Virus record (IMG/VR): IMGVR_UViG_3300022221_000009
Coordinates: 1 to 57,503 of that record
Reading direction: 5' to 3' (one strand)
DNA length: 57,503 bases
From: a virus
Lineage: Duplodnaviria; Caudoviricetes
Both the position numbers and the translations under genes were made by a program. Each line of letters begins with the position of its first letter. Within the stretch, counting starts at the first letter, position 1. The notes beneath the pieces were generated by a model. It was not told the DNA's origin. It did no database searches and was given only the letters and a program-made list of their open reading frames with translations. Shown in pieces: positions 1,274-37,100 of the stretch.

Positions 1274-3168
1274 ATCACACCTCCAGGCGGTAACATTGCT
1301 TGTTGCGGCGCTTGAGGCATCCCCTGCTGACCACCTGACATATCAGGCGCAACCTGGCCTGCCTTTTCTTCATCCGACACCACCATGGTGTCAGGTTTGA
1401 TATCCATACCGTCCGCAATCTCACGCATGGCCTCAGTACTCTTTAGGTCAGGATGACCGGCAAACATCTGCGCGAACTGCATCATCTTCTGGGTCTGGAT
1501 TTCTTTCGCCATGATCGCGGCAGAGCCTTTCGCCCTGACCAACATCTTGCCCAGAATCTCCCGTTTGGGGTTATGCCGCATATTCCAGTCATACATAGCT
1601 TCAATCAACGGCTCCAGGCCAAAGGCATCGATATTGCGCATCACCTTCTTGAGTGATCTGTTGGCATTGGAATTCAGGATACTCATGCCCGTGGCCGTAT
1701 CATTAGTGTTGGTCCCTTCCATGCCTGAGGTCAACGACGGCATAAAGGTTTCTTCGTCCATCAGCTGCCGGAACAGGTGGATGATCTTGATAAACTGATC
1801 TGTGTAGGCTGGTATCTCAAAAACATTGACCGCGCGCTTACTGTTATTACCGTCATGCTTCGAGTAAATCACACGCCAAGCCCGGATATCATCAACCTTC
1901 TCTCCGGGCTGTAATAAATCCATATTCACATCAAGTAATGGACCACTAGCAATCGCCGCGTTATCAATCATGATACGCGCCGCCGCGTTAATCGCGTCTT
2001 GAGAACCTTTACCCAGGTACGGGACGCCTTTCCCGAAAGGCCCAAAGCCAGCCCGTTTCACATATGGGATAATGTTGTATGGGATTCGGCCCTTGTGTTG
2101 CTTGGCCTTCAGTACAAACTGACCGCAGTACCAAATACAACCTTGTGTCTCCAGCGATTGCAATTCATACGGCATCTTGACGCCGGCATTACTTAATTCC
2201 TGTCCGGTGACCGGCCCATGGTAAACAATCACCCGATAACGCTTGCTTGCATTAGGGTCGGCATCGCCCGCGATAGTGCGTAACTCAATCTGATGCGTTT
2301 CAAGATTGGCATTACCCGCTGGAAAGTCTCGCAAGATCCGCAGGACCGAAGACGTATTGAACCCAGACTGCATTGCCAGATCCATCATTTGTGCGCGAGT
2401 CAGGAACAATTCTTCAAATATGCCGTTACCATCCTGAACACTAGTGGCTTCCATGTCCGGATAAAGATTGAAAATAGAGCAATACTTAACGTCCGGCTTA
2501 TGGCCCTGGCGCTCAATTTCGTTGGCGACCACCTCCATATTGGCATCGAACCCGACTTCCCAGTCACTCTTTTTGTCTTTGACCGTAAACGGGCCTTTCA
2601 AAGCACCTGATCCGGTAATCGTCATTTCAAGCACGGCCAGATCCAGATTTTCTGGCAAGTCAACCTCATCCAGCTGATTGCTGATTTCTGTCTTCATCGA
2701 TTCCGTGCGTACTCGCATCTCCTCGCGGATATGCTGAATAGTAATCCCCTGCTGTATCAAAAAAGGATGAAGCTCTGCATCATCCGGTATCGGCGCCGGG
2801 TCCAGGTCCCACGGCTCATCAGATAAGAAGTCCATGATCGCCGCATGCGCAGAATGAACTTTCATCTGCGTCAAACCAACCCACAATTTGGATCGACCAG
2901 CTTTAAACCGGGCCATTACGTTTGGTGAATACTCGTTGTTGTAACGACGGTAAGCATCCAACCACTCTTGTTCAAGTGTTTCACGCCGACGCCGACGTAC
3001 TTCTAATTCAGTATTTAACCTGGCGACCAAGTTACTTGGGCGGGACATTGTTTCCAGTGCTGCACCCAAGGTGTTTTCAACTTCTGCTAAATGTGCAGCA
3101 CGATTAGATAACTGATGATCACTTGGCCGGATAGCCATGGCTTGTACTTGTTGTTGTGGTACAGCCAT
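1270..3168 (-). CDS. Portal protein
   Basis: 632 aa directly after terL. Podoviral portal-like segments (GSGALKGP, FGKGV, INAAARIMIDNAAIASGP, TATGMSIL) and a Q/P-rich tail. Confidence 0.9.
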   Translation of the reverse strand: MAVPQQQVQAMAIRPSDHQLSNRAAHLAEVENTLGAALETMSRPSNLVARLNTELEVRRRRRETLEQEWLDAYRRYNNEYSPNVMARFKAGRSKLWVGLTQMKVHSAHAAIMDFLSDEPWDLDPAPIPDDAELHPFLIQQGITIQHIREEMRVRTESMKTEISNQLDEVDLPENLDLAVLEMTITGSGALKGPFTVKDKKSDWEVGFDANMEVVANEIERQGHKPDVKYCSIFNLYPDMEATSVQDGNGIFEELFLTRAQMMDLAMQSGFNTSSVLRILRDFPAGNANLETHQIELRTIAGDADPNASKRYRVIVYHGPVTGQELSNAGVKMPYELQSLETQGCIWYCGQFVLKAKQHKGRIPYNIIPYVKRAGFGPFGKGVPYLGKGSQDAINAAARIMIDNAAIASGPLLDVNMDLLQPGEKVDDIRAWRVIYSKHDGNNSKRAVNVFEIPAYTDQFIKIIHLFRQLMDEETFMPSLTSGMEGTNTNDTATGMSILNSNANRSLKKVMRNIDAFGLEPLIEAMYDWNMRHNPKREILGKMLVRAKGSAAIMAKEIQTQKMMQFAQMFAGHPDLKSTEAMREIADGMDIKPDTMVVSDEEKAGQVAPDMSGGQQGMPQAPQQAMLPPGGVM

Positions 3169-3290: not shown

Positions 3291-4756
3291 TACCCTGCTC
3301 CTGTATCTGCTGGCTCATGCTGTCGAGAACCGACGCTACCACCGGTTAAAAATGGATTGCCGATCACTTCAAAGCGATACACAGATCGCACGTCATAACG
3401 TAGTGCATCCAGTAAGTGATCGTTTTTCTTCACAATCTTGCCTTTTTCATCTCGGTGATATAAATCGAATTCCTGTAAGGTTTGAACACAATGCCCCATA
3501 ATTTTAAGACGGCCTGTTGCGATACGCTGATAGCAGTCCAATATCCCAGCGGCGACCGAATTGTCAGCCAACTTGATATCAAGTCCGGCTTTCCCGTATT
3601 CCTTAATGACCTTCTTGCCGTCCAGTTCGTTGGACTTGTTACCGGACGGATCCCCCCAGATGGGAATATTGCCGAAGGCCTTGATGGCCGCGGCATGGTT
3701 GACCGGTGGTAACTGGCCCTGCTTGTACTCACCGTAGACGTAGATGATGTCACCCTCTTCGTCATAGCATTGCACACTAGCGGCAGTCCAATTCCAACCG
3801 AAGTCCATTCCAATCCCACGAGGCCAGTTTCTCGGTACCTGGAATGTCGGCACCACAACTTGGTCACGCACAAACGGGTAAATCTTGCCTGCACCCAGTT
3901 GTGGCCGACCATGTTCTCGGGCTTCGAGTTCATGTGGCGGCAATTCCTTGCGCATTTCTTCGACGACTGCCGGCGACAACCAAGGGTTGTCCTGCCAACC
4001 GGCCTGGATGCGATATCGGTTACTGGCATCAAACTCATCACCGAAAAACATCATGGCCACATCGGACATGCCCGACAGCGGCGTCATGGTGAGATACAGG
4101 ATCCCTTCCGTATCGGCTATACGTTGATAGCACTCGTCATAAACACTTTTCGGCGGTTCTTCGTCCAGGTGTATCCAGTGTAGCGATACCGCCTGGAACT
4201 TCTTTCGTCCTTGATCGTACGATTTAAAGTCAATCTCGGAGACACCGCCAGTCACATGCTGGATAGTGACCACATCCACCGCGTCGGCCACACCCCGCTT
4301 GCGCGTGATACTGAGTATCAGGTGTTTGGGTATTAACCCGGTGCCCCACTCACCCGGGGGACCCAGCAGGACACGCTGAATACCATCACGGGTACTTTCG
4401 GCAGTATCCGAAGCGACTCGACCGCGTGTATGCTCAGTAAACCGCCTGCCTTTCCACCACCATGGATACAGCCCGGTGGCGTGATACGCATCCTCGGCGC
4501 CACCACCAACACTTTTCCCAGTGCGGTTACCACCAAAGAAAGCGCGGACCCGGTGCAGGAATCCAGCTAAGTGAAACGCGACCTGCTTATGGTGCGGCCG
4601 GTTGAACTTCTTACCAACCGGATCGTATTGCTCCAGTTTGACCAGCTTACGGCGCTTCTTTAACGCCTCCAGCAGTACCAGCTTACGTTCAAGTGGGTTG
4701 TCCGGTAGCTGCTCGACTAAATCACGGGCGACGCTGGCCGAAACGGGGAAGTTCAT
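3287..4756 (-). CDS. terL: Terminase large subunit
   Basis: GGNRTGKS Walker A, WIHLDEEP Walker B, LTMTP, and nuclease motifs GMDFG and NDHLLDALRY. Confidence 0.95.
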   Translation of the reverse strand: MNFPVSASVARDLVEQLPDNPLERKLVLLEALKKRRKLVKLEQYDPVGKKFNRPHHKQVAFHLAGFLHRVRAFFGGNRTGKSVGGGAEDAYHATGLYPWWWKGRRFTEHTRGRVASDTAESTRDGIQRVLLGPPGEWGTGLIPKHLILSITRKRGVADAVDVVTIQHVTGGVSEIDFKSYDQGRKKFQAVSLHWIHLDEEPPKSVYDECYQRIADTEGILYLTMTPLSGMSDVAMMFFGDEFDASNRYRIQAGWQDNPWLSPAVVEEMRKELPPHELEAREHGRPQLGAGKIYPFVRDQVVVPTFQVPRNWPRGIGMDFGWNWTAASVQCYDEEGDIIYVYGEYKQGQLPPVNHAAAIKAFGNIPIWGDPSGNKSNELDGKKVIKEYGKAGLDIKLADNSVAAGILDCYQRIATGRLKIMGHCVQTLQEFDLYHRDEKGKIVKKNDHLLDALRYDVRSVYRFEVIGNPFLTGGSVGSRQHEPADTGAGY

Positions 4757-5572: not shown

Positions 5573-5932
5573 TTTAAAACACAGCTAGATGGTCTGAACC
5601 TAACTATTGTTGACGACGATTCGGTGATGAGCAAGTTGTGGTATCAACCAGGAGACCCAACCATGGACCTCCGTAGTCACCTTGCGCAGCATACAGATAA
5701 ATCCTAAAGTAGATTAAACAATAAATCAACCAAATGTAATCTGAAGTAGTATTGTTTGTGATACTTAAAAAGGGTGCCCTGCATCCTGCAAGGCTTGGGA
5801 ATGGGTACAACTTCATGTTGTATTTCTGTCTTGGGAGAAACAGAAATAATAATTTATCACAACAAATTTGTTTGTGTAGCTTATTTTTTCTGGGTATCCG
5901 GATTTTATGATTGATATATGATTTATAGTCGC

Positions 5933-6133
5933 CTACAACAGCCTGTTTTTCTCGTCAATCAACAGTCGATTGATGAGGTCTGTCTCTGTCACATCATCCC
6001 CTAATTTGAGGCAGATTTTTAAAGCCTCGTTGGCCTCAGGCGAGAGCCTCCAGGATTTGCGGGCGCCGCCCGCGTGTTTGAGCGCGGCGATAGAGTCGTT
6101 TACTCGCTGCGTGGCTGTGCGTGGTTTAGTCAT
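5933..6133 (-). CDS. Small ribbon-helix-helix-type regulator (candidate Aca)
   Basis: 66 aa; strand RKSWRLS then two helices (PEANEALK..., TETDLINRLL). Last gene of the cassette; its stop codon lies within the left IR. Confidence 0.6.
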   Translation of the reverse strand: MTKPRTATQRVNDSIAALKHAGGARKSWRLSPEANEALKICLKLGDDVTETDLINRLLIDEKNRLL

Positions 6134-6639
6134 TTAGTTGGCTCCAGCGAGCGAAACGCCACACGCTCCATTTTGCGCACCTCGTCGGCCATTTCATCCG
6201 GCACGCAGACAGTGACACATTGACACTCGCGCGGACAGCCCACAATGCCGCGATGTTCGCGCAGGATTTTGTAACACCAGGTCCGCACGTCCTCGCGTTT
6301 TTTGCCTGTGATGTTAGCAACGTGTTTGTGACTGTGCCCCTCCACCAGCACCAGCCGCGCCGCCTCCAGGCTGGCGGGCGCGATCTTGGTGTAGCTGGCG
6401 GCAAGGTCAAATTGCTCGGGGGTCATGACTCGATATTCAAACATACCCTTAATAAATCCATTCAAGATTTCATCCGGCATTTCGGCCGCTCTGTCATTAT
6501 CTAAATCTGTTCGCCAGCCTTTAATTTTTGAATTCGTTGCAACAATGCCGCCGAGTTTGAATATCTCAATCGTTAAGTCTCTATCTCTACCGACGCCCGT
6601 CAAGTGCAGCAATTTTTTAAATATCTCGTTGTTGTTCAT
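6130..6639 (-). CDS. DUF1456/YehS-like domain fused to a KorA/TrfB (Aca4-like) HTH repressor
   Basis: N-part MNNNEIFKKL...DEILNGFIKG resembles DUF1456. C-part MTPEQF...EAARLVLVEG...VTVCVPDEMADEVRK follows the KorA/TrfB pattern. Confidence 0.7.
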   Translation of the reverse strand: MNNNEIFKKLLHLTGVGRDRDLTIEIFKLGGIVATNSKIKGWRTDLDNDRAAEMPDEILNGFIKGMFEYRVMTPEQFDLAASYTKIAPASLEAARLVLVEGHSHKHVANITGKKREDVRTWCYKILREHRGIVGCPRECQCVTVCVPDEMADEVRKMERVAFRSLEPTK

Positions 6640-6658: not shown

Positions 6659-6686
6659 ATTAGAAGCTGCCTATGCGGCAGCGTAA
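6659..6686 (-). CRISPR. Solitary type I-F CRISPR repeat-like unit #2 (not an array)
   Basis: Minus strand TTACGCTGCCGCATAGGCAGCTTCTAAT; the CTGCC-GCATA-GGCAG-CTT core matches the Cas6f hairpin of I-F repeats. Confidence 0.7.
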
Positions 6687-6712
6687 ATTATCTTTGTATG
6701 AGTCAGTTAGTC

Positions 6713-6955
6713 TTACAAAAGATTCTTTATTTCAAGAACATACCTGATCAAATAATGCTCTAAAGTTTCGCCGTTTTCGTCTTCTTTATCGTCCGGACAA
6801 CGAAACCATACCGCATTAACTGTTTTATACTCTACATCTTCTTCTTTTGACGCCCAATTGAATAAAACTCTTTTGAAACCCTGGTTGTTAAATTCTGCAC
6901 ATTCAAGCATAAATGAATGTGCATCGCTTTCGTTTTTAAAATTTAAGACTGGCAT
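6713..6955 (-). CDS. Small acidic protein, anti-CRISPR candidate (80 aa)
   Basis: Start re-called to ATG 6955 (MPVLNFKN...) with GGAGA RBS at 6964-6968; lies between two I-F repeats, upstream of Aca-like genes. Confidence 0.6.
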   Translation of the reverse strand: MPVLNFKNESDAHSFMLECAEFNNQGFKRVLFNWASKEEDVEYKTVNAVWFRCPDDKEDENGETLEHYLIRYVLEIKNLL

Positions 6956-6975
6956 TATAAGTTTCTCCGTTTCAG

Positions 6976-7005
6976 TCCCGGCATGACCCCGGCCGGGAAT
7001 CGGGG
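6976..7005 (-). promoter_or_regulatory. 5'-UTR H-type pseudoknot, copy 2
   Basis: CCCCG-AT-TCCCGGC-CGGGG-TCAT-GCCGGGA immediately upstream of the RBS. Confidence 0.6.
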
Positions 7006-7033
7006 TTTTTAAGCTGCCTGCACGGCAGTAAAT
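7006..7033 (-). CRISPR. Solitary type I-F CRISPR repeat-like unit #1 (Racr candidate)
   Basis: Minus strand ATTTACTGCCGTGCAGGCAGCTTAAAAA; 24/28 identical to the I-F repeat GTTCACTGCCGTACAGGCAGCTTAGAAA. Confidence 0.8.
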
Positions 7034-7057
7034 TTGTTTATTGATACAACACACTAA

Positions 7058-7345
7058 TTAGCTCACATGCACAAAATAAATAGTTTCTCGTGTGAAATCC
7101 TCTCTAACTTCGGATGTGTCGTTATAATCTTGATCTATGTCATCGCCAGATCCGATGTGGTCAGAATAGCCCACGCCATGAATTTCCAGCATTACCTCGT
7201 TTTGTATATCATCAAAACACTGAGCAATAAAATCGCTGTTTTCAAAACCGCTGCCCGCGCCGTGCGGTACAAGCGGTGCTTTAATTGCGGAATCAAAGTA
7301 TTCTTGACACCGCTCAACCATTAACTCTTTTGCATTCGTGCTCAT
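7058..7345 (-). CDS. Small acidic protein, anti-CRISPR candidate (95 aa)
   Basis: First gene after the strong promoter; AGGAGA RBS; D/E-rich. Confidence 0.65.
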   Translation of the reverse strand: MSTNAKELMVERCQEYFDSAIKAPLVPHGAGSGFENSDFIAQCFDDIQNEVMLEIHGVGYSDHIGSGDDIDQDYNDTSEVREDFTRETIYFVHVS

Positions 7346-7363: not shown

Positions 7364-7394
7364 TCCCAGCGTCAGCCCCGGCTGGGAATCGGGG
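7364..7394 (-). promoter_or_regulatory. 5'-UTR H-type pseudoknot, copy 1
   Basis: CCCCG-AT-TCCCAGC-CGGGG-CTGAC-GCTGGGA; A-U replaces the G-C pair of copy 2. Confidence 0.6.
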
Positions 7395-7421
7395 GAGCTA
7401 AATATCTCAGCTCATTGGTAC

Positions 7422-7450
7422 AGTGTAGTCGCCTACGGTCTATTTGTCAA
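7422..7450 (-). promoter_or_regulatory. Near-consensus sigma70 promoter of the cassette
   Basis: TTGACA (7445-7450), 17-bp spacer, TACACT (7422-7427); overlapped by the quasi-palindrome GTAGTCGCCTAC. Confidence 0.8.
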
Positions 7451-7999: not shown

Positions 8000-8278
8000 T
8001 TAAAGAGTCTCTTTCTGGATAGCTATACCAAACAAAGCAATCAACTTATTCCTGACCTCAACCCAACCATCAGGGATATCACTCTCCCCGGTTTCATCAT
8101 ATTTAGCGCGTCGATTAACATCGTACAGAATTTCATAGGCATTATTCAGTTCGGCAAAAGTGTCCTTATCGCCACCGCGATCCGGGTGACACCGCATCGC
8201 CAGCCGTTTGTAGGCCGTCTTGATTTCTGCTTGAGTTGCATCCTTAGACACACCCAATACTTCATACGGATTTTGCAT
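8000..8278 (-). CDS. DnaJ/J-domain protein (possibly truncated)
   Basis: [15 protein letters not shown]...[15 protein letters not shown]...NAYEILYD; intact HPD motif. Confidence 0.85.
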
Positions 8279-8687
8279 TTTGTTTTTTCTCCTGTGTATA
8301 AAGCCAGACATCGATCCAGCGTAGGCCGTCTTTGACTTTGGCTCTAAATGTTGATTTTGATATTCCAAACCACGTGAGGTTATTAGATACACCTTCTAAT
8401 CCGATATAGTTTGCAATCAGGATTTGTGCTAATTCCTTGTAACGAGGATGGTCGCTCATTTCATGCATAGCTTTTTCTATTTGTTCAGCATCATCATTGA
8501 CAGGTGGTAACTTCTGGCCTTTGCTGCGAATCATAACGCCGCCCATTTCGATTAATTCATATTCCAGCGTTTTAGATGCATATCCGTTTAATTCTCCATC
8601 CTCACGCCGACAGGCCCAGTTCGCCCACATCTTAACCAACATATCGATGTATTGGAGCCGCTCGTCATCGTACTGGCGCATGCTCAC
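8262..8687 (-). CDS. Antiterminator Q-like late regulator
   Basis: [12 protein letters not shown]-terminus and C-terminal HTH-like [11 protein letters not shown]; near the end of the delayed-early arm. Confidence 0.55.
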
Positions 8688-9946: not shown

Positions 9947-10753
9947 TTACTTCTTCGTAAATGAGCCGATGAACGTGTTATCTACATTAAGTGTTTTTAG
10001 TAAGATATCTTTGAATTCCTCACACATTTCTTCCTTATGCTTCTCGAATTGAACAACACGCAATACTAACTCTGGCTTTTCATGTCGATTTGTGATCACA
10101 CTCAACCGCATCAGGAAATCGCGTTCTGCCAGTCCATCATATGGTTGACATGTGTATTTAATATAGGCTGGCAAATTTCCTTCATCGTTACGAATATCCA
10201 ACTCCTCCATACCGCTTGCCCTGTGGCCCAGGTTCTTTTCCTCGGTATTACTCTCCGATTTAAATGAAACGGTAATGTTCCGCACGGCTGCGATTACCTT
10301 CTTGATATCAATTGCCTGGCTATCTACTGTCAAGCCGATCATGTAGTCGCGCCAGTCCTCAATCCACTCTGCTAATCCTTGTTGGGTGTAAGGACAACCA
10401 TCAATAGCACACATCACTGTATACGGTGAAAGCTTTTCTAATAACAACTTGGCAGAATGTTCGCCATGGCCTGGTTGATCAACATCACCTAGATCGAAAT
10501 AAGCTTTAGCCGACATACTGTCTGCATCAATAAAGCACTTCGGTATATCCTGTTGACCCACGTATGATTGGAATTCATTAATAATCTTGGTTGAAAAGTC
10601 GCCACGGAAACGGGCAGGTGCTTCCATGTACTTTTCCATATTTTTGACTTCATACCCACTGGCTACTACCAGGGCAGGCACGTTTGTCTCAGGAACCAGA
10701 ATCGGATTTCCGGTTTTCTGAATATGTTCAATTGCAGATTTATCCATTGACAT
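9947..10753 (-). CDS. YfdQ/DUF2303 family protein
   Basis: MDKSAIEHIQ, RFRG, AEWIEDWRD and PYDGL motifs; paired with a YfdP-like gene. Confidence 0.85.
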   Translation of the reverse strand: MSMDKSAIEHIQKTGNPILVPETNVPALVVASGYEVKNMEKYMEAPARFRGDFSTKIINEFQSYVGQQDIPKCFIDADSMSAKAYFDLGDVDQPGHGEHSAKLLLEKLSPYTVMCAIDGCPYTQQGLAEWIEDWRDYMIGLTVDSQAIDIKKVIAAVRNITVSFKSESNTEEKNLGHRASGMEELDIRNDEGNLPAYIKYTCQPYDGLAERDFLMRLSVITNRHEKPELVLRVVQFEKHKEEMCEEFKDILLKTLNVDNTFIGSFTKK

Positions 10754-21006: not shown

Positions 21007-22065
21007 ATGACCAAAATCGAATGGACCGACGCCACCTGGAACCCCATCACCGGCTGCACCAAAGTCAGTGACGGCTGCAAACACTGCTATGCCGAACGGG
21101 TCTGGAAACGACTGGCCGGAAACCCGCACTGTGAATACTTCAAGCGGCCCTTTACTGACGTGCAATGCCACCCGGTACGCCTTGGTCAGCCCTTGCGCTG
21201 GAAAAAGCCCCGGATGATATTCGTCAACAGTATGTCGGATTTGTTTCATGAGTCGATACCCTTCGAATACATCGCCTCAGTCTTTGCCATCATGGGAGTC
21301 ACCACCCGGCATACCTATCAGGTACTCACCAAGCGGCCTGAGCGTATGCTGGAGTTTTTTGAATGGATAGATGATTGTGGTGGGATATTTCCGGGCGACG
21401 AAATATGGGAGTACTGGCCAGAGCATGTTAAGTGGAAGGGTTACGACAACTGCGGCCCAGGCTACCCCTTTGAAAACGTCTGGCTTGGCGTATCAGTCGA
21501 AGATCAGAAAACCGCAAACGAACGGATCCCCTTGCTACTCCAGACCCCGGCCGCTGTCCGGTGGTTATCCATCGAGCCCATGCTGGGGGCGATTGACTTA
21601 AGAATTCCATTAAATCTTATGTGGCTTGTTACAACACCATTTAGCGCCCGCACCGGCTATGTGGGGAAAAGCACCTCTGGCTGGCGACCGTCTTACAGGA
21701 TTGATGACCCAGACGAAACGCCTATACCACCCGATATTAACTGGGTAGTCGTCGGCGGCGAATCCGGCCCCAAAGCCCGCCCCATGCACCCCGACTGGGT
21801 CCGTTCCGTGCGCGACCAATGCCAGGCCGCTGGCGTGCCGTTCTTTTTTAAGCAGCATGGTGAGTGGATAGCCTCAGCTTTTTGTGCTGATGATCAAGCA
21901 GATGTCAAATGCCAAGAGGCTTATATCAGGCGGGATGGCTATGTTCATAATGGTGATAACGGCGTTGATTTCTTCGGATCAGACGAGCAAGTGCTTCGTC
22001 TCGGCAAAAAGAAAGCAGGCCGCACCCTCGACGGCAGGACATGGGAGGAATATCCCGATGCGTGA
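21007..22065 (+). CDS. DUF5131 (phage Gp37/Gp68) protein
   Basis: TKIEWTDATWNPITGCTKVSDGCKHCYA, FVNSMSDLFH, GGESG and FFFKQ motifs. Confidence 0.92.
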   Translation: MTKIEWTDATWNPITGCTKVSDGCKHCYAERVWKRLAGNPHCEYFKRPFTDVQCHPVRLGQPLRWKKPRMIFVNSMSDLFHESIPFEYIASVFAIMGVTTRHTYQVLTKRPERMLEFFEWIDDCGGIFPGDEIWEYWPEHVKWKGYDNCGPGYPFENVWLGVSVEDQKTANERIPLLLQTPAAVRWLSIEPMLGAIDLRIPLNLMWLVTTPFSARTGYVGKSTSGWRPSYRIDDPDETPIPPDINWVVVGGESGPKARPMHPDWVRSVRDQCQAAGVPFFFKQHGEWIASAFCADDQADVKCQEAYIRRDGYVHNGDNGVDFFGSDEQVLRLGKKKAGRTLDGRTWEEYPDA

Positions 22066-25314: not shown

Positions 25315-26694
25315 ATGCCAGAACTAACCATCAGCCAATACCAGGGAGTCCTGCGCGAAGCAGGCAAACTGGTACCATCTGCCCGAACGATTAAGCGGGA
25401 GATCGCGTCTGGCCGACTGGGGGGCTACAAGAAACCGGGTCCAACTGGGCGATATGTTGTTGATCCTGATCGCCCGATCTCGGATACTACCCAACCAGAG
25501 GGAATGGGAATGGGTGGAAATCGACTACGGATCCATGATGGGTTGCCGCCTAACTTATATAAGTATAAGAAGAGCGATACTTGGTATTTTAGGTACAAAA
25601 TACCGGAACATATTAAAAATATTCCGGAAAATGAACGCTGGCAACCTTTAGGATCAAACGAATCAAAGGCCATCGATGCGGCCAATCAATTTAACCAGAA
25701 GTTTGGTAAAGGGTCTGATTTAGTGGCCCAGGTATACGCACGTCTGGACTCTATTGATCGCCATTTCGGGAGATATGTACAGAAGTTTCTGACGCAGATC
25801 CTCCCCGCTCGACGTGTTGGTAAGCGTAAAGAGCCTATGAGTCCGAACACTATTACTGAATACACCCGAATTTGTAATGACTTTCTATCGATCTGGAATG
25901 AAAAATACTTTCCGGAAATTACCCAGGCCATCATAGCTGAATACCTGAATAAGCAGGTATCTGCAGCAGTTTATAACAAGCACCGTACTGTTTTAGGGTT
26001 AATTTGGAAATATGCGATCAGCGATGGATTGATTGAAGATAAAGTTAATTTACCATTAGCTATTGTGAAAAGGGATGGAGAAAAGACAAAACGTCACCGA
26101 CTTACATTGGAAGGCTACCAAGCAATATTTGAACATGCTTCCTTTGCTGTTCAATCAGCCATGGAGTTATCGATCAATTGTATTCAAAGGCGATCTGATA
26201 TTCGGATATGGAAATTTGATGATACATTGGATAACGGCATGGTTCGTCGAATTGTTTCAAAAACAAAATCACGAGGAATGGAAGCCTATATAATGATTCC
26301 GATCACGCTTCCTTTGATCCATTCTGAACGAGGATGTAAAACACTCAAAGAATTAATTAATAGCTGTCGTGATAATGTGCCCTCACCTTATCTGGTTCAC
26401 CATAAGCCATACCGTCGAAAGCTATCTAAACAGAAAGACCACTGGACACAATTAAGCAAAGAAGAAATATCAAATGGCTTTGCTGATGCCAGAGAGAGCA
26501 GTGCGTTTTATCAAAAACTACCACCGGAAGAACGTCCCACATTACATGAATGTATTGCCCTTGGTGAACATCTTATGGGAAATGCAGGCTATGATGAAAA
26601 GTGGATACAGCTGCTCCGAGGTCATCAAAAAATTGAGACAACCCGACTTTACCTGGAGGACCATGAATGGACAGTGATACCGATGCCATGTTAA
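25315..26694 (+). CDS. int: Tyrosine integrase with N-terminal excisionase-like extension
   Basis: Arm-binding LPPNLY...YFRYK; catalytic QRRSD, KTK, HECI and LRGH...TRLY; adjacent to attP. Confidence 0.88.
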   Translation: MPELTISQYQGVLREAGKLVPSARTIKREIASGRLGGYKKPGPTGRYVVDPDRPISDTTQPEGMGMGGNRLRIHDGLPPNLYKYKKSDTWYFRYKIPEHIKNIPENERWQPLGSNESKAIDAANQFNQKFGKGSDLVAQVYARLDSIDRHFGRYVQKFLTQILPARRVGKRKEPMSPNTITEYTRICNDFLSIWNEKYFPEITQAIIAEYLNKQVSAAVYNKHRTVLGLIWKYAISDGLIEDKVNLPLAIVKRDGEKTKRHRLTLEGYQAIFEHASFAVQSAMELSINCIQRRSDIRIWKFDDTLDNGMVRRIVSKTKSRGMEAYIMIPITLPLIHSERGCKTLKELINSCRDNVPSPYLVHHKPYRRKLSKQKDHWTQLSKEEISNGFADARESSAFYQKLPPEERPTLHECIALGEHLMGNAGYDEKWIQLLRGHQKIETTRLYLEDHEWTVIPMPC

Positions 26695-27928: not shown

Positions 27929-28195
27929 ATGACTTGTACCGGCTTAACAATATTTCAGGTTGAGATAGTCAACTTCATTGCCATGGCGATCACCATGGGG
28001 CCAGCCTTATTGGCCGGCCTTTATGTGTTTGCCCGAACTACCCGGAAAGTGGAAAGCCAGTACCAGACCCGGCATGGCTCGATGGAAAGACGAATCGCGC
28101 TAAACTTTGCCCTGATACCGGGCTTGATCGCCTTTGTATTATCCGCGGCCTTTCTTTCACTCCTGACCCAGCACCTTTTTTGCGTGTTCCCGTAG
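27929..28195 (+). CDS. Small two-TM membrane protein
   Basis: Two hydrophobic helices; convergent with the giant gene. Confidence 0.5.
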   Translation: MTCTGLTIFQVEIVNFIAMAITMGPALLAGLYVFARTTRKVESQYQTRHGSMERRIALNFALIPGLIAFVLSAAFLSLLTQHLFCVFP

Positions 28196-31100
28196 ATTCT
28201 CCATTTTCCGTTTGATCACCTGCTTCTGTTTCAGGTATTCCTGACCATCAATCAGATTCCGTTTTTTGTCCGACTCCAGCTGGAACATTTGACTACTTAG
28301 TGCACGCTGGATTTGATCGATATCCCGCGCATGCCAGGACAGACCGTATTTCACGTCATGGGGGGCCAGCTTGACACCGGCAGAGGATAAGAAAGCATAG
28401 CCGATCCCGTACTCACGGCCCAGCATGTCACGGCCACCCTTGATCGACCGTTCAATCTTTTGCCAGTACCAGGACTCCGGTATCCAGGGTGCTGCCGGCA
28501 TCCACGATCGCCACGCCCAGCCACCCAGCTTGGCTGCAGACTCCCCAGTGGTATCGATTTTCGAATCGACGATCTCCTTGCCGGTGAAGGCCTGCTTGTT
28601 CAAAGCCAATTCCCCAGCCAACATCAACGGGCCACTTAGCTGCAATGGCGCCGGTATCGGGAGTGCCCACTGACCCTGATTCATATCAAAGACATCCCCG
28701 GCCGGTATCCAGCGACGGATATCCAGGAAGACCGGGTTACCGTGTTCATCGTGCCAGGGCATGCGCATCATGCGAGGCACACCCGGCAGCCAAGTATTCC
28801 CTTGTGCTTGTTCACGCATGGAGCGGCGTTCCTCGTCCTCATCACCGGGCGATAGCATATAACCCAGGGCATTCACCATATAGGCAATCGTGGTGTACTT
28901 GGCCAGCTTCCACGGCCGTTCCGCAATGGATTTGGCGATCACCGGCACGGCCCGGTAGGTGTAGGCGATAAAGGGCAGCACAGTCCCGCGCATGGCGTTG
29001 ACCCAGGGTGCCCGAATATCGTAATTCAGGAACTGTTCACGCGCCGCACGGGCAGAGACATCCGGTTGATCACCGAGGGATAGACGGCGCATATAGGTGG
29101 CCATACGGAAAATCTCATCTTCCATCGAGTACCAGTCAATCATCCGTTTATCAGCCTTACCAACCCATTTCCAGATTGATTCGTACATCTGACTGAGGTT
29201 ATTCAGGCGACCCTCTGCCCCGCTGGCCTCGTCCAGATTCTGGCTTTTCAACTCTTCCAGGAGCGGGTCGAGGATCTGCCGGCGCACTTCCTGATCCACA
29301 AAGTTACTGCCAAACACCCCGTGCTCAACAGCATCCCGGTAGTCCTTGGTTTCATGGCGCAGGGCATACCAACCACGATACAGATCCTGCCAGCGAATAT
29401 CGGCCATATCCATAAAGATGAAGTTGGACATGATGTTATTCATGTGCACCACTGGGTTGCGGGCGGTCTTGTTCAGTTTCCACTGGGTCAGCAGCTTGCG
29501 CCACAAGCCCGGGACCTGGAGCCGACGCAGTTCATTCAGGTCACGCCAGATTTCCGCACGCACATACTTGCCGGCCAGAGGACCCCAGAGGCGTTTCGTT
29601 GTCCCGGGTAAGGTGGATTCTGGGATCTGCACCCATTCATAACCCACATACGTGGCCATGGCCCCCTTGGGGGTGGTGATGGTACCGGAATCGGGCGGTC
29701 CTTCTTCGGACCATACCCAGTTGGGGTTTTTGGCAATATCCGAGTAGAACCGTGCCGTGGACACATCATTGGCCAGCAACATATAGGACTTGGCCAGGAC
29801 ATACCGTGCATCGAGGATTTCCCCCATGGATTCACGCTCAGACTGCGTAAAGTCACGCCAGAGGGTGATCTTGTTGCCCTTGTAGCCGCGGGCCTCCCAG
29901 ATACCCTTGTTGTCCCAGCCCTTGTACATATTGGGCAGAGGCACGTCTGCAGGCCAGTAGCGACGGTCCAGGACACGCGGCTTGCGACCGGGCTCACCCA
30001 TTCCTTCGAAGGTTTCTGTGCCCTGCCCGACAGCCTGCACCTTGTCCAGCACGATAAACTTCATCCCCTGCAGGGAGCCGTCCGTCTTGTTTTTGAATTT
30101 CTGACGGCCCCACCAGTCAACCGGAACCGCATCAAGCAATTTGTCCTGCTCGATATTCATATTCATGCCCCGCTGGCGGAGCTGACTGCCAATCATCTTG
30201 GCTCGGCGGTTGGATAGCTGGTTATTGACCCAACGGCCCAAGCCGGTCTGTTCAATCTCATGCTTTTTGTACGCGCGGTGCAACCAGGTCCCCCGGTGGC
30301 GTTCATAGGTTTCCGCATCCAGCCAACCCAGTTCCACCAGTTCATGCCCCAGCTGGTCCAGGGCCTGACGAACCGGTGCCGCGATATCGTTCCACTCGGA
30401 ATCGGGAATTTGTTCACCTTCCAAAATGGCTTTGAAGACCTTGGCCTCTTTGACATCCATGCCCCGGTTCATCATGGTATTAATGAAATCAGCCCCTTCC
30501 ATCTGGATCCGACGCTTCTCGGCCTCACGCTCGAAGTCACGCTGTTTGTACTCTTCGGTCAGACCGTATCGATCGATCAAACCCGCACGTAAATGTTCAA
30601 GGAAAGGATTCATCCACCCCATATAGCCATCGGTATTGAACTTGCGATCCATCACCAGTTTTTCCAGTTGGTTATAGCCCTTCTTGGTTTTATCGGGCAC
30701 ACCGGCAATGTCGAAGGCCTTGCGGAAGACGCGATCAATTGGCTGACCTTTGCCCAGGCGGTCGAGGAGTTTCTTCTGGTTATCGGGGAGATCGTCGCGA
30801 TGGTCTTTGGAGATAGGGTCACCCAAGGAGAACATGACTTGACCTTGTTCCAGAACGGCGTCACGCATTTTTTTTGAGATATCAATGGAATGGGTAACCA
30901 AAGGATCTAATTGGTTTTCGTTTTTATTTACGAAAGCATCTGCTTCTTCTTCTGAGGCAAAAGTATCAAGGATATTTTCATCCATATCTACTACATGCCA
31001 TTCTCCCCGATTGTTACCCATAGCGAAGAGGCCTTTTAGGTATTTACGTTTACCAATATTAGTTTTACCAACTTTAGCCCCCCATTTTTTGACATACTTG

Positions 31101-34100
31101 TTGACAGCTGAAGGTAGTATTTTATCATAAAACCCTTTCATGCCTTCGCCGCCGACTTTGAGCTGCTCACCTTCTAGGTGATACGATGATCCGCCATTCT
31201 TGTTATCCCATCGTTTATTTTTTATTAATTTGTCCGCCGCTTCCTTCCCGATTAAATCAGGCAAATCTTCTTCTTTTACATCGCTTTTACTGATTACGCG
31301 ATCATGGTCTTTGTAAGCATACAGTGTCTCGGTACCACTATTGTATTCAACACTATCAATCTGCTTACTCAAGTCATACCGATCTGCCTGCTGTTCTCCG
31401 GTAGTCCAGGCGATCCGGTCAAATCCGTTCTCAGCGGCATAGCGGATCATGCGCTTCATAGCCAACAGGGGCCAGGTGGTTTTAAAGGGGGCATCAGGAA
31501 CAGTGTTTTTGGTATAATCTGAATGCTCCATCATCTCCTGTCGATAAGATTCTATATCGGTAACAGTGCTATCTAATTCGAAAAATTGACGCACCTCTGA
31601 ATCGCTAGGCACATCTTTTTTATACCCTTTCTTCCTGCCCTCCTGATGCCAGTCACTCTGTACTTCCTCGACAAATAACACACGTTTGCCCTCTGCGTCT
31701 GTGCGCTCATTGAAACGGATGTGGGCCAGAACATTGGGCTCATCGAAGTGGCTGGACTTGTAACTTTCACCATCCGGTGCGCTCAGTGCCACTTCTGGCA
31801 CCTGGTCTTTAATATCAAGTTTTTCAGATTCGGATAAATCATCCCAGCTAGGTTCGCCACCTTTTCGCATGAAGTTTTCATAGAATTGTTTTGCGCTGGC
31901 ATCTTCTGATAACTTTTTAACAGGCAACGTCAACAACATCTCCCGATAGTTTTTGCCTCCGGGTAATTGATATCCAGCAAATTTTGCTACTGAACTTGGT
32001 CTATGTGCAGCCTCTTGTAGTTTTTGTAATTTTTCTATAGCTGCCTTTGGCCATTCATAGGTTTGAGTTGTGCCGTATTTTATTTCCATTTCACGGCGAT
32101 ATTTATTTAATTCCTCAAGCTCTTTGTATTTGCCTGATATTTTTTCCATCTCTTCGATCTGGATATTATTCACCCGCAGGTAATCCAGCACCTGGTCCTT
32201 GCTTACCTTACCCTCTTGTTCCTGCAGCCACTCAACCAGTCCGGACCATTCCAGTTCTTCCTGTTTGAATTCGCCTTTCTTGGCCCATGACTGCACGGTC
32301 ATTGCCAGTTGCTTGGCTGGACCTGAGTTTGGTAATTTCTTAGCCAGGACAGATTGCAGTTGGCTGTAGAAAATTGGTGCATTAACTGAATACGAGACAC
32401 CTTCGCTTACAGTTTCCCCTGCTACAGCCGTTTCTTTTCGGATATGATTCGCTGCATCCTGCAGGATGACACCCATGTCGGCTTTGGTCAGTTTGAGATT
32501 AAACCCAAGTTGTCGCATCAAATCACGAATCATTGACACAATACGGTCAAAGAGTTGCTTGGCTTTTTTACTCAGAGTGTTGGCATGATAGGATTCAGCC
32601 AGTTTGGCAAGATATTCCTCGACAGCTTTTAATCTGTCGGATTCTTTATCGAGATCGAAATTGTAGCGTTTGGCAATATCGACAAGACTTGATCGACCAA
32701 CAGCCAGATAGACTTGTTTTAATATAGTAACCGCTTGATCACCGAAGCCTTTGAAACCGGCATGCAGTAATACTTCATGGAAGATGGCGCGCTCAACGTC
32801 TGCATCATTTAATAAGTTACCCGCAACCAGATAAACTTCACCGGTTTGATTATCGACAAAGCCCTTGATTCTATTTTCTTTGCCTTTTATTTGATTCTTG
32901 AATTTATCAGGCACGTCCTCGATAGAGGATAGAACGGTGATCTTCGGTTTGTTTTTCCAGCTGCTTGTCAGCCGATCAACAATTTCCTGTACCCCAGAAA
33001 CAGAAAACCCGGTTTGTGGCCGGGTTTCGGTATTGGATAGTTTGGCACTTACTGGTGGTCCTGATCCCTCAGTTCCCTCAGACGCTGCAGACTGTCGCGC
33101 TTGTTTTGCTGCAAGGAGGCGATCTCGGACGGACTCAGTTTCCGGTACCTTGACACGATCGAGGTATCGGGCTTCTGATTCTGTGAGGCTGTCAAATCCG
33201 TAGCCGAATTCTGAGACAAACCATTGTTCAAATTCATTTCCATAGCGTTCACGTAGTTTCTGTAAAATCTCCTGACTTGGTGCAAGTTTAGATGAATACT
33301 GCTTACCCATCAATGCAGACGTTAGAATAACCTCGCCACCCTGAGATTCAATGTAGCCCCGCAGGCTGGCCAGCGTTCCGCCTTGCGTTAAAGTATCGTC
33401 TACAATCAGGTACTTACGGCCTTTTTCCACTTCGCCGGTAAAGGTCGGCTGATTGGCCAGACGGTAGAAGCCATCTGACCCGCCTCGACCAATTTTCTCT
33501 GTCTGAACAATCGACTCGTCAACCTCCAGACCCAATTCATTGCCAATTACTTCGGCATACGCCAGGGGGATCTGGTTCACGCTGACCCGTTCCTCGGCAT
33601 GAATGGCCACCACAATGGGATAGTTATCACCAATAGCCCCGGACAGCTTATTAATGTCTTCATCCTCAATCAGATCCCGGGCCAATCGGTAAGCGGCCTC
33701 GATGTCGCCATCCTTCGCGGCACGGTAATCAGGGTGTCCCTGGGCTTCCTTGGCCGTTTTCAGGATAACTGCATTCGGGTAGTTTTCTGGCCATGGCGTG
33801 CGGACCTTATCACCAAGGGAAAAGCTGACGGATTCATCGCTGGGTAACGCTTCGACCATAAAGGCTTCGGCATTCTCTTTTTCCTTGAATATAAAACCTG
33901 TAGCGTAACGTGAATAATAACCATCATGCTTTTTAGCCAGCGATTTCAATTCCATATAACGATCACGTGGTACCCGGTCAACCATCTTAATGGTCCAGAT
34001 AGGATAATGATCTCTTGTGTGTTCACCCTCCGTCATTTCCAGTCCGGTGCGCTTAGCCTCTTCCTGGGCCTTGGCCTCGGCTTCCTCGGCTTCGCGTTCT

Positions 34101-37100
34101 TCCTTGGTCTTGGTTGGCTCATTCCGTGGATCGATAGAAAAGTCTTCTATTTCATCAAAAAACTCATGAACGGATTCAAAGCTACTGAAATCATAATTCG
34201 CTGACTGTGGCGCATCTTCCGGATTATCCTGTCGGTCCAGCACAACAACCCGTGTAGCCACCTTGGTTGCGGCCCGCTCAAAGGTCGCGGTGGGTAAAGT
34301 AATATCAGCCGCCAGATAAATATTCTCAGTCAACTTGTTGTCATACATAAGTTTATCGAACCGTTTGTCAGCCATACCCCCACGCGGAATGATAGCTGTA
34401 ATCCGGCCACCGTTTTTCAAATGTTTGATCGCTTTCTCGATATGACGAATAGCATCACTCCCGCCTTTACCGAAAGGGGGATTCATGGCGATCACATCAT
34501 ACTTGTTGATCAAATGATGATTTTCAAAGGTATCCCGGATCACCTTACCATTCGTGACAACCGCCAATTCACTGGCCAGTCGGCCGGACGGCTCAATAGC
34601 GGTATTATTTGAATGACCAGGGAAGAACCGCGCAATGGCACCATGACCGCCTGACGGCTCCATGGCATCTTCATTCGGCTTGATATTGGACCACTCGACC
34701 ATCTTTAGACCAAGGGGCTCAGGTGTCGCAAAATAATCCTTGCCCTCAGCGGATTTGTTGCGAGAAGTTTTCTTGCCTCGGGCCAAGTAATAGGTTTTGG
34801 CCCGATCAAAGTCTGATATCTCGCGCTGATTCCGGTCGCCTTCTTTCCCGCCTTTCCCTTGCCCTTCTTTGGGTGATTCTTCTACTGGGTTCAGATAGCC
34901 TTCCTTGAATGCAATATCCATGTCCCTGGCTGTCAAACCCATGGCCAAATTTTCAGCGGTACTGACACGCTGACTGATCGTGTCAGCATAAGCAAATCGT
35001 TCAAAGCTGGTGTTGATCACCGGGTATTCAAAGATTGCATCGGACTGAACACCAATCCGGTACACCCGGCCCTCCATCTGGATCGCGTCAGTCGGACTGG
35101 TCGGCAATCCCAACACCATCACCACACGCTGGCGCTTGCCCGTGATATCGTGAAGACTGATCCCTTCCTTACCCGCCATCTTCTGCACAACAAGAATAGA
35201 TAACTCGTTGTTATCGTTATTAAAATCCTTGATCGCGGCACGTCGGTCCTTTTTCGATTGACGACCATTGAACACCGCCACCTTTTCGCCAAAATGTTTT
35301 AACAGGGTATCAACCACAGGACGCAATCCAGATAGGTCAAGATTCACTAAATCAGAATGATGGTTTTTAAAGTGGGTTATTTCCTGTTCAAGTTCTTCTT
35401 CCCCATTTCCAACAAATCGGAAAGGATGTGCCGGAGCCCCTTCGATATAGTTGTGAAACACAACCACTTTACGTCCCAATGCCAGGTGCTTTTCAATTCG
35501 CTCAATGCTGGCCTTGGCCTTGATCGTTTCCAGTAAGCGATGCTTATAAATCCCCTTGGTTTTCTGACGCAGGTGCTCACTCAGTTTCGGGTAAGATTTG
35601 TGATCAATGACATCGTACATCCCTCGATCAATCTCGGTACCGATATCCGGATCCACCAGCACAAATTCACGGGCATAATCTTGTTCAACTTCAATAGCAC
35701 GACCGGATAATGAACCAGCTTCAACTAACTGCTGATTAAAGTTGCGCTCCAACAAACCGACATCGATACCAGCCTCGGGACGTTCAGCACGGTTATAGCG
35801 CATGTGGTACCCGAAATTCGATACCAGGAACTGATCAAAGTTATCCCCGGCGTTATAGTGGGACGTAGATGATTCGTCATATCCTTCTGTGGTATCGAAC
35901 ACATAGCCATCGGCATAGAACACATTCTTATGACCAGCCCACGGAGTCGCTGACAAAAAGACAACCTTAGTCGGGCTTTCCTCTTCCCATTTGCGGTACT
36001 TGTCGGCCAATTTATCGGCCTGTTTTTCAAGCAATTTGTACTCTTCCTTATATTTTTTTCTGGCCTTATCCTCTGCAGCAAAGCCATTTAATTTTTCTAT
36101 TTCTTCCAGTCGTTCCGCTTCTTTTTTAACCTTGGTTTGATATTTTGCATACTCATCCCGCAATTCATTGCGGCCACGCACCTTGTATTCAAAGTCTCGA
36201 TGATTGGTAATCGTGTAATGCTGCTCAGTGGTATCACTTTTCTTACCCTGCATATTCTCCATAAGCTTGTGAGACTCATCGTACAGAATCAGATCCCAGT
36301 GACGTTCGAGCAGAGCTTTGTTTTGGCGGAAATTGGCATACGTCGTAACGACCGCACCCTCACCAGCTGACACGACATTAGGTAGAGGTTCGGCTTTGAT
36401 AAACAGGTTTTTCGCATCAATCGCCCAATCAGTCACCTTGGCCTCAGAAGGGGTGACGATCAGAATATTGTTCTTACCATCCTTTGCAAACCGTTTGGCT
36501 ATTCCCAGGCCGGTATAGGTCTTACCGGTACCGGTACCATTGGTAAACATCATGCCTTTGCCATTGGCCTCATAAAACCGCTTTTCGGTTTTCAGGACAT
36601 CATCTTGCTGTTCGGGTGTGAGGAACGGGAGAGTTTCACGGATATTATCAATATCCTGGTGAATGTTTTTGATACGTTCAGCTTTGCGCTGGCGATCTAG
36701 TTTGGCTTGGTGCTCAGATTCCGTAGCATACGGTTCAATGTGGAGGCTTGTTTCTGGTTCAGTCTGTACTCCTGCGTCATCAGTTGTGTCGCTTCGTCCG
36801 GTGTCTGTACGTCCGGCAGGGCCTTCCTCAGATCTAAATTGTCCGTCTTGGCTAAATAGGTCGAAATTGCCTGATTCTCCAACATCGGCAGGGCTATCGT
36901 CTGATACGCGACGATCACCTTGTTGTCCACCTTGTCGGCTTTCAGTAGATTGGCTTGATGTTCCAGCGTCCTTTCCAGTTCCTCGTCCTGCATCACGAAC
37001 AGCATCTTCGCTGCCTGGCTCTTGGCCAGTGGTGCTATCTGATTCCAAATTGTCGCCGGTACTTGAAACATTATTGGTCTCCTGCTTTGAGTATAACTCA

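Follow-up and report, generated by a model that had tools for sequence, protein, structure and literature searches.

Two solitary repeats in a predicted phage operon

We analysed a virus record of 57,503 bases assigned to the Caudoviricetes (IMG/VR IMGVR_UViG_3300022221_000009; hereafter the window), in which two sequences resembling the repeats of CRISPR–Cas systems of type I-F stand between small genes. We refer to these sequences as solitary repeat units (SRUs), SRU1 and SRU2. All genes near the repeats are on the minus strand, and they are predicted to form one operon, from promoter to terminator, in the order orf95, SRU1, orf80, SRU2, orf169 and orf66. Listed in the direction of transcription, with lengths in nucleotides (nt), base pairs (bp) or amino acids (aa), the locus contains:

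7422..7450, minus strand: predicted sigma-70 promoter, near-consensus (TTGACA-17 nt-TACACT, 10/12)
7395..7413, minus strand: 7-bp hairpin at the 5′ end of the predicted transcript, unlike a type I-F repeat
7364..7394, minus strand: leader copy 1, with the box CCCCGATTCCC and a 7-bp GC-rich hairpin (7387..7364), then GGAG and the orf95 ATG
7058..7345, minus strand: orf95, an acidic 95-aa protein, predicted three-helix bundle
7006..7033, minus strand: SRU1, complete type I-F repeat mimic (stem-loop 7028..7014)
6976..7005, minus strand: leader copy 2, with the box CCCCGATTCCC and a hairpin (6998..6976), then GGAG and the orf80 ATG
6713..6955, minus strand: orf80, an 80-aa orphan protein
6659..6686, minus strand: SRU2, type I-F repeat mimic with a natural stem-loop and CUU and diverged flanks (stem-loop 6681..6667)
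6130..6639, minus strand: orf169, with an N-terminal DUF1456-like domain and a KorA/TrfB helix-turn-helix domain
5933..6133, minus strand: orf66, a small protein whose start overlaps the orf169 stop
5776..5794, minus strand: terminator-like hairpin that has a T run, where the operon is predicted to end

The promoter scan was not enriched overall (4 sites against a mean of 4.8 in shuffled sequence), so the operon promoter call rests on the quality and position of this single site. Transcription would start near 7415, giving a predicted transcript of 1,646 nt. Both SRUs are intercistronic and in the sense orientation, 24–26 nt past a stop codon, and the next ATG follows 50 nt after SRU1 and 19 nt after SRU2. 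A sequence-only reading of this DNA had reported two type I-F-like repeats here in the transcribed orientation. Both strings are indeed present on the minus strand (7033..7006 and 6686..6659), and both are sense within the predicted operon. Upstream of the operon lie a Q-like antiterminator gene and a J-domain gene, and downstream lie the terminase genes.

SRU1 and SRU2 resemble type I-F repeats

The pattern CTGCC-N5-GGCAG occurs twice in the window (6667..6681 and 7014..7028), against a mean of 0.03 in 100 shuffles, none of which reached two; the stem and 5-nt loop that the sequence-only reading had described are kept in both copies. SRU1 matches the Rfam family CRISPR-DR4 on the minus strand across model positions 1–28 with 36.7 bits (gathering score 35), and it is the sole Rfam match above the gathering score in the whole window. 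Compared with repeat variants from real arrays, SRU1 is identical to one at 24 of 28 positions, the figure given previously, and to another at 26 of 28. The 60-nt arrays in which this closest variant stands belong to four bacterial genomes, and Cas6f is encoded in three of the four. We also scored all 28-mers of the window against the four most common real-array repeats: SRU1 ranked first (26/28), followed by SRU2 (21/28) and then by the next stretch (19/28), and the maximum over 200 block shuffles was 21/28, reached in two of them. Judged by such sequence comparison, SRU2 alone is, as a full-length repeat, at the edge of chance.

The core of SRU2 tells more. Its 18 nt of stem, loop and CTT are letter-identical to a natural type I-F repeat core, and a permissive search of 2.1 kb gave a partial CRISPR-DR4 match at model positions 6–23 (22.4 bits, E value 0.088). 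This 18-mer is present at least twice in 41 of the 80 genome loci that we fetched, mostly at a spacing of about 60 nt, and loci with the 18-mer include Legionella, Gallibacterium, Acinetobacter, Providencia, Pectobacterium, Thiothrix and Nitrosomonas. In the 80 loci, a further 26 copies stand singly, with no I-F-type stem nearby; many of them lack I-F flanks and belong to unrelated bacteria, as is to be expected by chance for an 18-mer in 596 billion bases. Because the 18-mer also occurs singly by chance, the case for SRU2 rests on its position rather than on the 18-mer alone: it lies 347 nt from SRU1 (start to start), points the same way and occupies the next gap between cistrons. Of the type I-F identity claimed for both repeats, the claim for SRU1 stands above the DR4 cut-off, and that for SRU2 stands for the exact 18-nt core and not for the full length.

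All five stem pairs are preserved in both SRUs, as are the letters at either end of the loop, and the closing pair C6–G20 is present in each (CUGCC-5 nt-GGCAG). Their deviations from the common repeat lie in the loop and the 5′ flank, where natural arrays vary too: natural 5′ flanks include GTTCA, GTTAA, CTTAT and GTTTG, the last of which has G at position 5, like SRU2. The 5′ flank AATTTAC, which is unusual, is common to both SRUs and suggests that they are paralogues; SRU2 has two extra letters before the stem. In the 3′ handle, SRU1 has 7 of the 8 natural letters and SRU2 has 5 of 8. A partition-function fold of the whole predicted transcript gave stem pair probabilities of 0.96–0.98 for SRU1 and 0.99 for SRU2. 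Because no U run follows either hairpin in the sense direction, the SRU hairpins are unlike operon terminators, and a terminator-like call at SRU1 belongs to the opposite strand. The Cas6f cut sites would fall between 7014 and 7013 in SRU1 and between 6667 and 6666 in SRU2.

The repeats are solitary and intergenic

The gap between the SRUs is 319 nt and contains orf80, as the sequence-only reading had put it with a distance of about 320 nt and a gene between. This rules out a CRISPR array, which would show a regular spacing of about 60 nt and spacers of about 32 nt. No partial repeat was found within 100 nt of either SRU (best local alignments 46–57%), and with no second repeat in that range the repeat, short spacer and degenerate repeat of a Cracr element are not present. 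Six-frame searches of the window for the Cas6f/Csy4, Csy3 and Cas1 families gave no match, which upholds the earlier statement that cas genes are absent for these families; other cas families were not searched.

Under the published definition, an SRU shares 90% identity or more with a known, subtype-defined CRISPR repeat across no less than 90% of that repeat (SRUFinder; PMC10651486). By this measure SRU1 qualifies, at 26/28 (93%) to a real-array repeat, and SRU2 does not, being a partial match with 18 of 28 letters exact. Both are solitary, intergenic and carried by a mobile element in which the cas check just described found nothing. A public gene call extends orf80 to 113 aa from a GTG at 7054 and would swallow SRU1 together with leader copy 2. 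We prefer the 80-aa form starting at ATG 6955, which is better supported than the 113-aa form: GGAG lies about 9 nt upstream of this ATG, and the leader is a copy of the one in front of orf95, which is non-coding. Because the published search for SRUs masks genes that are predicted with confidence (PMC10651486), the 113-aa call could have hidden SRU1 from it. Repeat mimics under over-long gene calls, of which SRU1 is an example, may escape surveys that mask predicted genes.

SRU1 and SRU2 as candidate RNA anti-CRISPRs

RNA anti-CRISPRs (Racrs) were first described in 2023 in a study that listed 2,103 viral SRUs and found Racr candidates enriched within 1 kb of predicted anti-CRISPR (acr) genes (PMC10651486). 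Solitary type I-F repeats in phages and their clustering with anti-CRISPR genes are already published there, and the window adds one more candidate. The explanation that we favour, with modest confidence, is that SRU1 and SRU2 are Racr-type SRUs, that is, I-F RNA mimics co-transcribed with candidate anti-defence genes. The word Racr here denotes our best hypothesis for the two SRUs and not a finding. The sequence-only reading had also called them Racr candidates: repeat mimicry, orientation behind a predicted promoter, solitary state, phage context and a place among small genes with regulators behind them all fit this proposal, and SRU2 falls short of it in lying below 90% identity.

The operon would be transcribed early from its own promoter as a polycistronic messenger RNA (mRNA) for two small proteins and either one repressor or two. 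Where the host has a type I-F system, both SRU hairpins would be bound by its Cas6f, which would cut the RNA at the 3′ base of the hairpin, behind the last G of the stem, and stay on the upstream product, as it does on CRISPR RNA (crRNA) and on RacrIF1. One transcript would in this way take two molecules of Cas6f out of guide production, and the RNA attached to the Cas6f-bound SRU product might become lined with Cas7f. Fewer working surveillance complexes would then be available while the phage establishes itself. In the published work, mutation of the C6–G20 pair abolished Cas6f binding and inhibition, substantial inhibition persisted when the handle was changed, and the part of RacrIF1 that inhibits was the product upstream of the cut (PMC10651486).

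Judged from its description, without alignment of the sequences, RacrIF1 of a Thiocystis violascens prophage is alike in being a solitary I-F mimic of a temperate phage with a 5-bp stem and C6–G20, and in its expected mechanism of Cas6f binding, cutting and sequestration, which in the window is predicted only; it differs in being a stand-alone small RNA with its own promoter, whereas the window has two mimics inside a protein-coding operon (PMC10651486). The acrIC5–racrIC1 pair of a Bifidobacterium prophage likewise places a repeat mimic directly after the stop of a small gene, co-transcribed and 11 nt behind acrIC5. That mimic is of subtype I-C, single, at the end of a bicistronic RNA and next to a known anti-CRISPR (Acr) protein (PMC10651486), whereas the mimics of the window are internal to the predicted transcript and their neighbour proteins have no known-Acr match. 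CracrIF RNAs are also I-F repeat-derived RNAs of phages and plasmids that adjoin anti-CRISPR genes, but they consist of a repeat, a short spacer and a degenerate second repeat and act as guides (bioRxiv 10.1101/2024.10.29.618823). Engineered Csy4/Cas6f hairpins are placed between parts of an mRNA that cutting then separates (PMC4604432, PMC13478208); these are artificial designs.

Several observations weigh against the Racr interpretation. As a full repeat, SRU2 reaches only the 21/28 given above (at most 22/28 by hand against natural variants), and an extra G–C pair lengthens its stem to 6 bp. The product upstream of the SRU1 cut would be a translated mRNA of about 400 nt, compared with about 70–76 nt for RacrIF1 (PMC10651486). 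Neither orf95 nor orf80 resembles a known Acr in sequence (Pfam, PHROGs, NCBIfam and PDB sequences), and a Foldseek search with the orf95 model gave no match at E ≤0.001 in the PDB or BFVD. The operon has an anti-defence layout, of the type in which acr genes are joined by an anti-CRISPR-associated (aca) regulator gene, without a validated member, and carries that label by layout alone. Close relatives of the phage were looked for in GenBank phages, IMG/VR contigs, and genome and metagenome collections, and none was found. Comparison of 31 spacers from four fetched arrays with the window gave no convincing protospacer (best 17 of 18 letters). The two public copies of the stretch are letter-identical to the window and leave no variation for a conservation or covariation test, and the runs listed as containing the stretch are DNA runs only, with no RNA run among them. 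Finally, only one of the five plasmid loci examined that carry DUF1456 or KorA relatives has an I-F repeat and four are without, and no I-F repeat was found in three contigs with relatives of the operon proteins (L010, L011 and L012).

Alternative explanations

The same hairpins could be Cas6f-dependent processing sites that serve the operon itself, with the decoy effect secondary. The mRNA would be cut into three, uncoupling the small genes from the repressor genes and making output depend on the host's active I-F system; downstream pieces would get 5′-OH ends and upstream pieces a protein-capped 3′ hairpin. The position of both SRUs exactly between cistrons, at the distances from stop and start codons given above, is in keeping with this idea, as is the fact that SRU2 separates the candidate effectors from the regulators. 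A 5′-OH Cas6f product has been found to be more stable than a triphosphate transcript (PMC10651486), and Csy4 hairpins in mRNAs alter stability and translation in engineered systems (PMC4604432, PMC13478208). However, no natural example surfaced in literature searches, which were not aimed at this question, and nothing in the sequence separates processing from decoy action, the two being compatible. We regard processing as the principal role as unlikely. We give a similarly low probability to the idea that the SRUs are relics or generic hairpins without a link to Cas6f, a captured repeat having been kept in SRU1 and decaying in SRU2, which would at most stabilize the mRNA between cistrons in any host. 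The drifted flanks and 5/8 handle of SRU2 would suit a relic, other intercistronic hairpins of the operon are unrelated to CRISPR, and the 18-mer occurs singly by chance elsewhere, as in the 26 single copies among the 80 loci. Yet all ten stem letters and the CUU are intact in both SRUs while the flanks differ, the pattern expected if the part recognized by Cas6f is under selection; moreover, the two copies stand within 350 nt, compared with 0.03 expected per 57 kb, and SRU1 is a full-length match above the curated Rfam cut-off.

Two further possibilities fit the locus far less well. Guide-like Cracr RNAs, in which a repeat opens a mini-array and the short spacer of this array guides the host complex in the repression of cas or toxin promoters, exist as I-F elements in phages and plasmids (bioRxiv 10.1101/2024.10.29.618823), and a relative on the plasmid pAsa_2939, described below, has exactly that form, with a repeat, 18 nt and a degenerate, compensated repeat. 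At the SRUs, by contrast, the flanking 100 nt contain no second repeat, not even a partial one (best 57%), what follows SRU1 is a leader also found before orf95 without a repeat, and the next real repeat is 347 nt away, across a gene; we consider this possibility very improbable. The phage is temperate, with an integrase at 25315..26694, and repeat-like sequences can mediate integration into arrays (discussion of PMC10651486), which is what would favour the SRUs being recombination sites for integration into a host CRISPR array. We give this the least credence, as something scarcely to be expected, given that both copies belong to an operon from which the integrase is about 18 kb away and that no other stretch of the window is above 19/28 to an I-F repeat.

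A bolder idea, which we think rather improbable, is that the repeat–gene–repeat unit is itself the weapon: a 347-nt, crRNA-shaped RNA that soaks up Cascade, from an operon that senses host immunity and has DUF1456 as a dedicated partner. This RNA would consist of the 8-nt 5′ handle CUUAAAAA (7 of 8 natural letters), a 319-nt 'spacer' of orf80 message and a 3′ hairpin holding Cas6f. The subunits that bind the handle could be recruited to it, along with a Cas7f filament of great length, and all components of Cascade would be engaged, not just Cas6f and Cas7f. How effector and repressor cistrons are balanced would depend on host Cas6f, and the operon would sense the very immune system that it attacks.

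Neighbouring proteins, leaders and operon regulation

With its small genes, near-consensus predicted promoter and terminal DNA-binding regulator, the operon has the form of an acr–aca operon; homology to a validated Acr or Aca family was not found for orf95, orf80 or orf66 (Pfam, PHROGs, NCBIfam and PDB sequences). For orf95, no family was found in Pfam, PHROGs or NCBIfam, and the search of PDB sequences returned chance-level rows only, none of them an Acr. Its own family is very small: six proteins at E ≤0.001 among 1.84 billion representatives, five of which, of similar length, were aligned. The three-helix bundle of orf95 was modelled with confidence (predicted local distance difference test, pLDDT, 88), and a structure search of the ESM Atlas matched one viral hypothetical cluster (template modelling score 0.62); an ESM Atlas feature search with orf95 and orf80 gave no usable match. 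The only orf95 relative with readable context, at 44% identity, is on contig L012, where small genes stand in a row and two operator-like promoters precede them. Similar GC-rich leader hairpins (CCCGGC/GCCGGG; ~3447..3470 and ~3693..3718) are found before two of these genes, and a weak Aca2/YdiL-like gene lies further along the contig (18.7 bits, below the cut-off of 23.8). The orf80 protein is an orphan, matching only its own sequence among 5.8 billion proteins and nothing in Pfam, PHROGs, NCBIfam or PDB sequences, and its low-confidence model (pLDDT 62) was too poor for a structure search. By position only, orf95 and orf80 are candidate anti-defence proteins.

orf169 matches the KORA profile with an E value of 3e-10 and DUF1456 with 25.0 bits, just below the cut-off of 27, and it also matches solved KorA-domain proteins (E 1.7e-5). 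Its two halves occur elsewhere as separate proteins. We infer that orf169 is a candidate operon regulator with an Aca-like role. A word search for KorA, TrfB and DUF1456 found none of them in the text of a 2026 preprint that surveys Aca proteins. Distant KorA-like relatives in two metagenome contigs likewise follow small genes; in L010 and L011, the hairpins in front of the KorA-like genes do not resemble I-F repeats and have no Rfam match of significance (best E value 0.87, opposite strand). At 6428/6429, the junction between the DUF1456 and KorA parts of orf169, one public contig of run X2 has 50 extra letters, and P0002, which like P0008 and P0009 is a relative at 67–75% identity, starts at a methionine that corresponds to orf169 residue 72. 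The fusion may be a recent 50-nt deletion, or the extra 50 nt may be an assembly artefact. orf66 belongs to no family in Pfam, PHROGs or NCBIfam, and its matches among PDB sequences are designed repeat proteins only; a ribbon-helix-helix fold is conceivable from our reading of its sequence.

No inverted-repeat operator was established in the operon. The 11-mer GTAGGCGACTA lies between the −35 and −10 elements of the operon promoter (7431..7441, minus strand) and again directly after the orf66 stop (~5925..5935); it is a possible operator for the operon regulator, or a chance repeat, of which a rough estimate gives about 0.5 per 2 kb. The leaders of orf95 and orf80 are copies of one element in which one stem pair has changed on both sides, copy 1 having A–U where copy 2 has G–C. 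The leader pattern occurs twice in the window against zero expected, and a search of viral contigs for the leader box CCCCGATTCCC did not find it. In the whole-transcript fold, the leader hairpins have pair probabilities of only 0.15–0.5. The element may be a translational operator or a processing site. We rejected leader hairpin 2 as a second kind of CRISPR repeat, its CRISPR-DR18 match having an E value of 2.3 and copy 1 having no GAAAC tail.

A J-domain gene lies near a DUF1456 gene both in the window (at 8000..8392, which is upstream of the operon by about 1.4 kb) and in L147, a Glaesserella parasuis plasmid in which the order is J-domain gene, one gene, DUF1456. This J-domain/DUF1456 neighbourhood may be conserved.

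A DUF1456 homologue beside a type I-F repeat on an Aeromonas plasmid

Among plasmids, the DUF1456 half of orf169 has its best match on pAsa_2939 of Aeromonas salmonicida (NZ_OQ067800.1; 51% identity, E 4e-15), where the homologue is the second gene of a three-gene operon of unannotated genes. The leader of that operon contains an I-F repeat (CRISPR-DR4, 38.9 bits), which begins a repeat–spacer–repeat unit (1937..2010 of our locus L145). Ahead of the repeat is a region that looks like a promoter, with a copy of the 13-nt palindrome ATGCGAATCGCAT on either side; the whole arrangement is in L145 1880..2040. The repeat is followed by an 18-nt spacer and then by a degenerate repeat with a compensated stem, CTACC...GGTAG. 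By its sequence, this leader looks like an undescribed Cracr-type locus.

Both pAsa_2939 and the window have an I-F repeat above the DR4 cut-off, a DUF1456 homologue in the same operon and a small last gene. They differ in that the plasmid has a repeat–spacer–repeat unit in a 5′ leader, whereas the window has solitary, intercistronic repeats; the other plasmid proteins are unrelated to orf95 and orf80. Two unrelated mobile elements thus have a DUF1456 homologue whose operon also carries a mimic of the I-F repeat, which we count as an independent parallel in favour of the Racr interpretation.

I-F repeats also occur in an IMG/VR provirus record (L013), which has three at 60-nt spacing (8333..8480) and a single one at 10044..10071 (DR4, 40.1 bits). 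The single repeat is 1.6 kb past the array and 5 nt from the stop of a convergent gene, presumably BRO-like as named by eye. The start of a stretch about 36 nt further on resembles that of a repeat (GTTCACTG). As for the array, it may belong to host DNA at the edge of the provirus.

Phage context

The completeness of the phage contig is estimated at 92%, and its integrase is evidence of a temperate phage. The terminase is podovirus-like, and the portal has a weak match to the SU10 portal family; searches with the large terminase subunit (TerL) and the portal found distant relatives only, at no more than 45% and 35% identity, respectively. Blastn and megablast of the locus against 50,697 phage records gave nothing relevant, the sole match being 81 nt of Gordonia phages at 21016..21096, and tblastn of orf95 and orf169 against phages gave no match. 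Scans of viral contigs seeded with orf169, orf80, orf95 or the DUF1456 alignment returned no relative or one distant relative (L012), and a scan of genome contigs with orf169 returned Flavobacterium DUF1456 genes only. A DUF1456 query of 401 sampled gammaproteobacterial genomes found no match, in a search that had no positive control and is hence uninformative. No transfer RNA genes were found in the window. The public copies of the stretch are in two DNA runs from sediment metagenomes, both of which are possible sources. At 28157..41077 on the minus strand, the window has an open reading frame of 4,306 aa with InPase, ResIII/helicase C and methyltransferase-like domains, which we take to be reminiscent of the giant injected anti-restriction proteins of other phages.

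Implications

The tested Racr examples considered here are a stand-alone small RNA (RacrIF1) and a repeat that ends a two-gene transcript (RacrIC1) (PMC10651486). Compared with the published cases considered here, the layout of the window, with two mimics in one predicted protein-coding transcript and bracketing a gene, is new, as is the association of DUF1456 with I-F repeat mimics; neither surfaced in our literature searches, in the portions of the sources that these covered. If SRU1 and SRU2 are Racr-type decoys, phages also build repeat decoys into messenger RNAs. The locus raises the questions of whether Cas6f cutting can regulate the phage's own genes, whether a long mRNA with a handle and a hairpin can nucleate aberrant complexes, and whether orf95, orf80 and the DUF1456 domain are new anti-CRISPR or accessory proteins.

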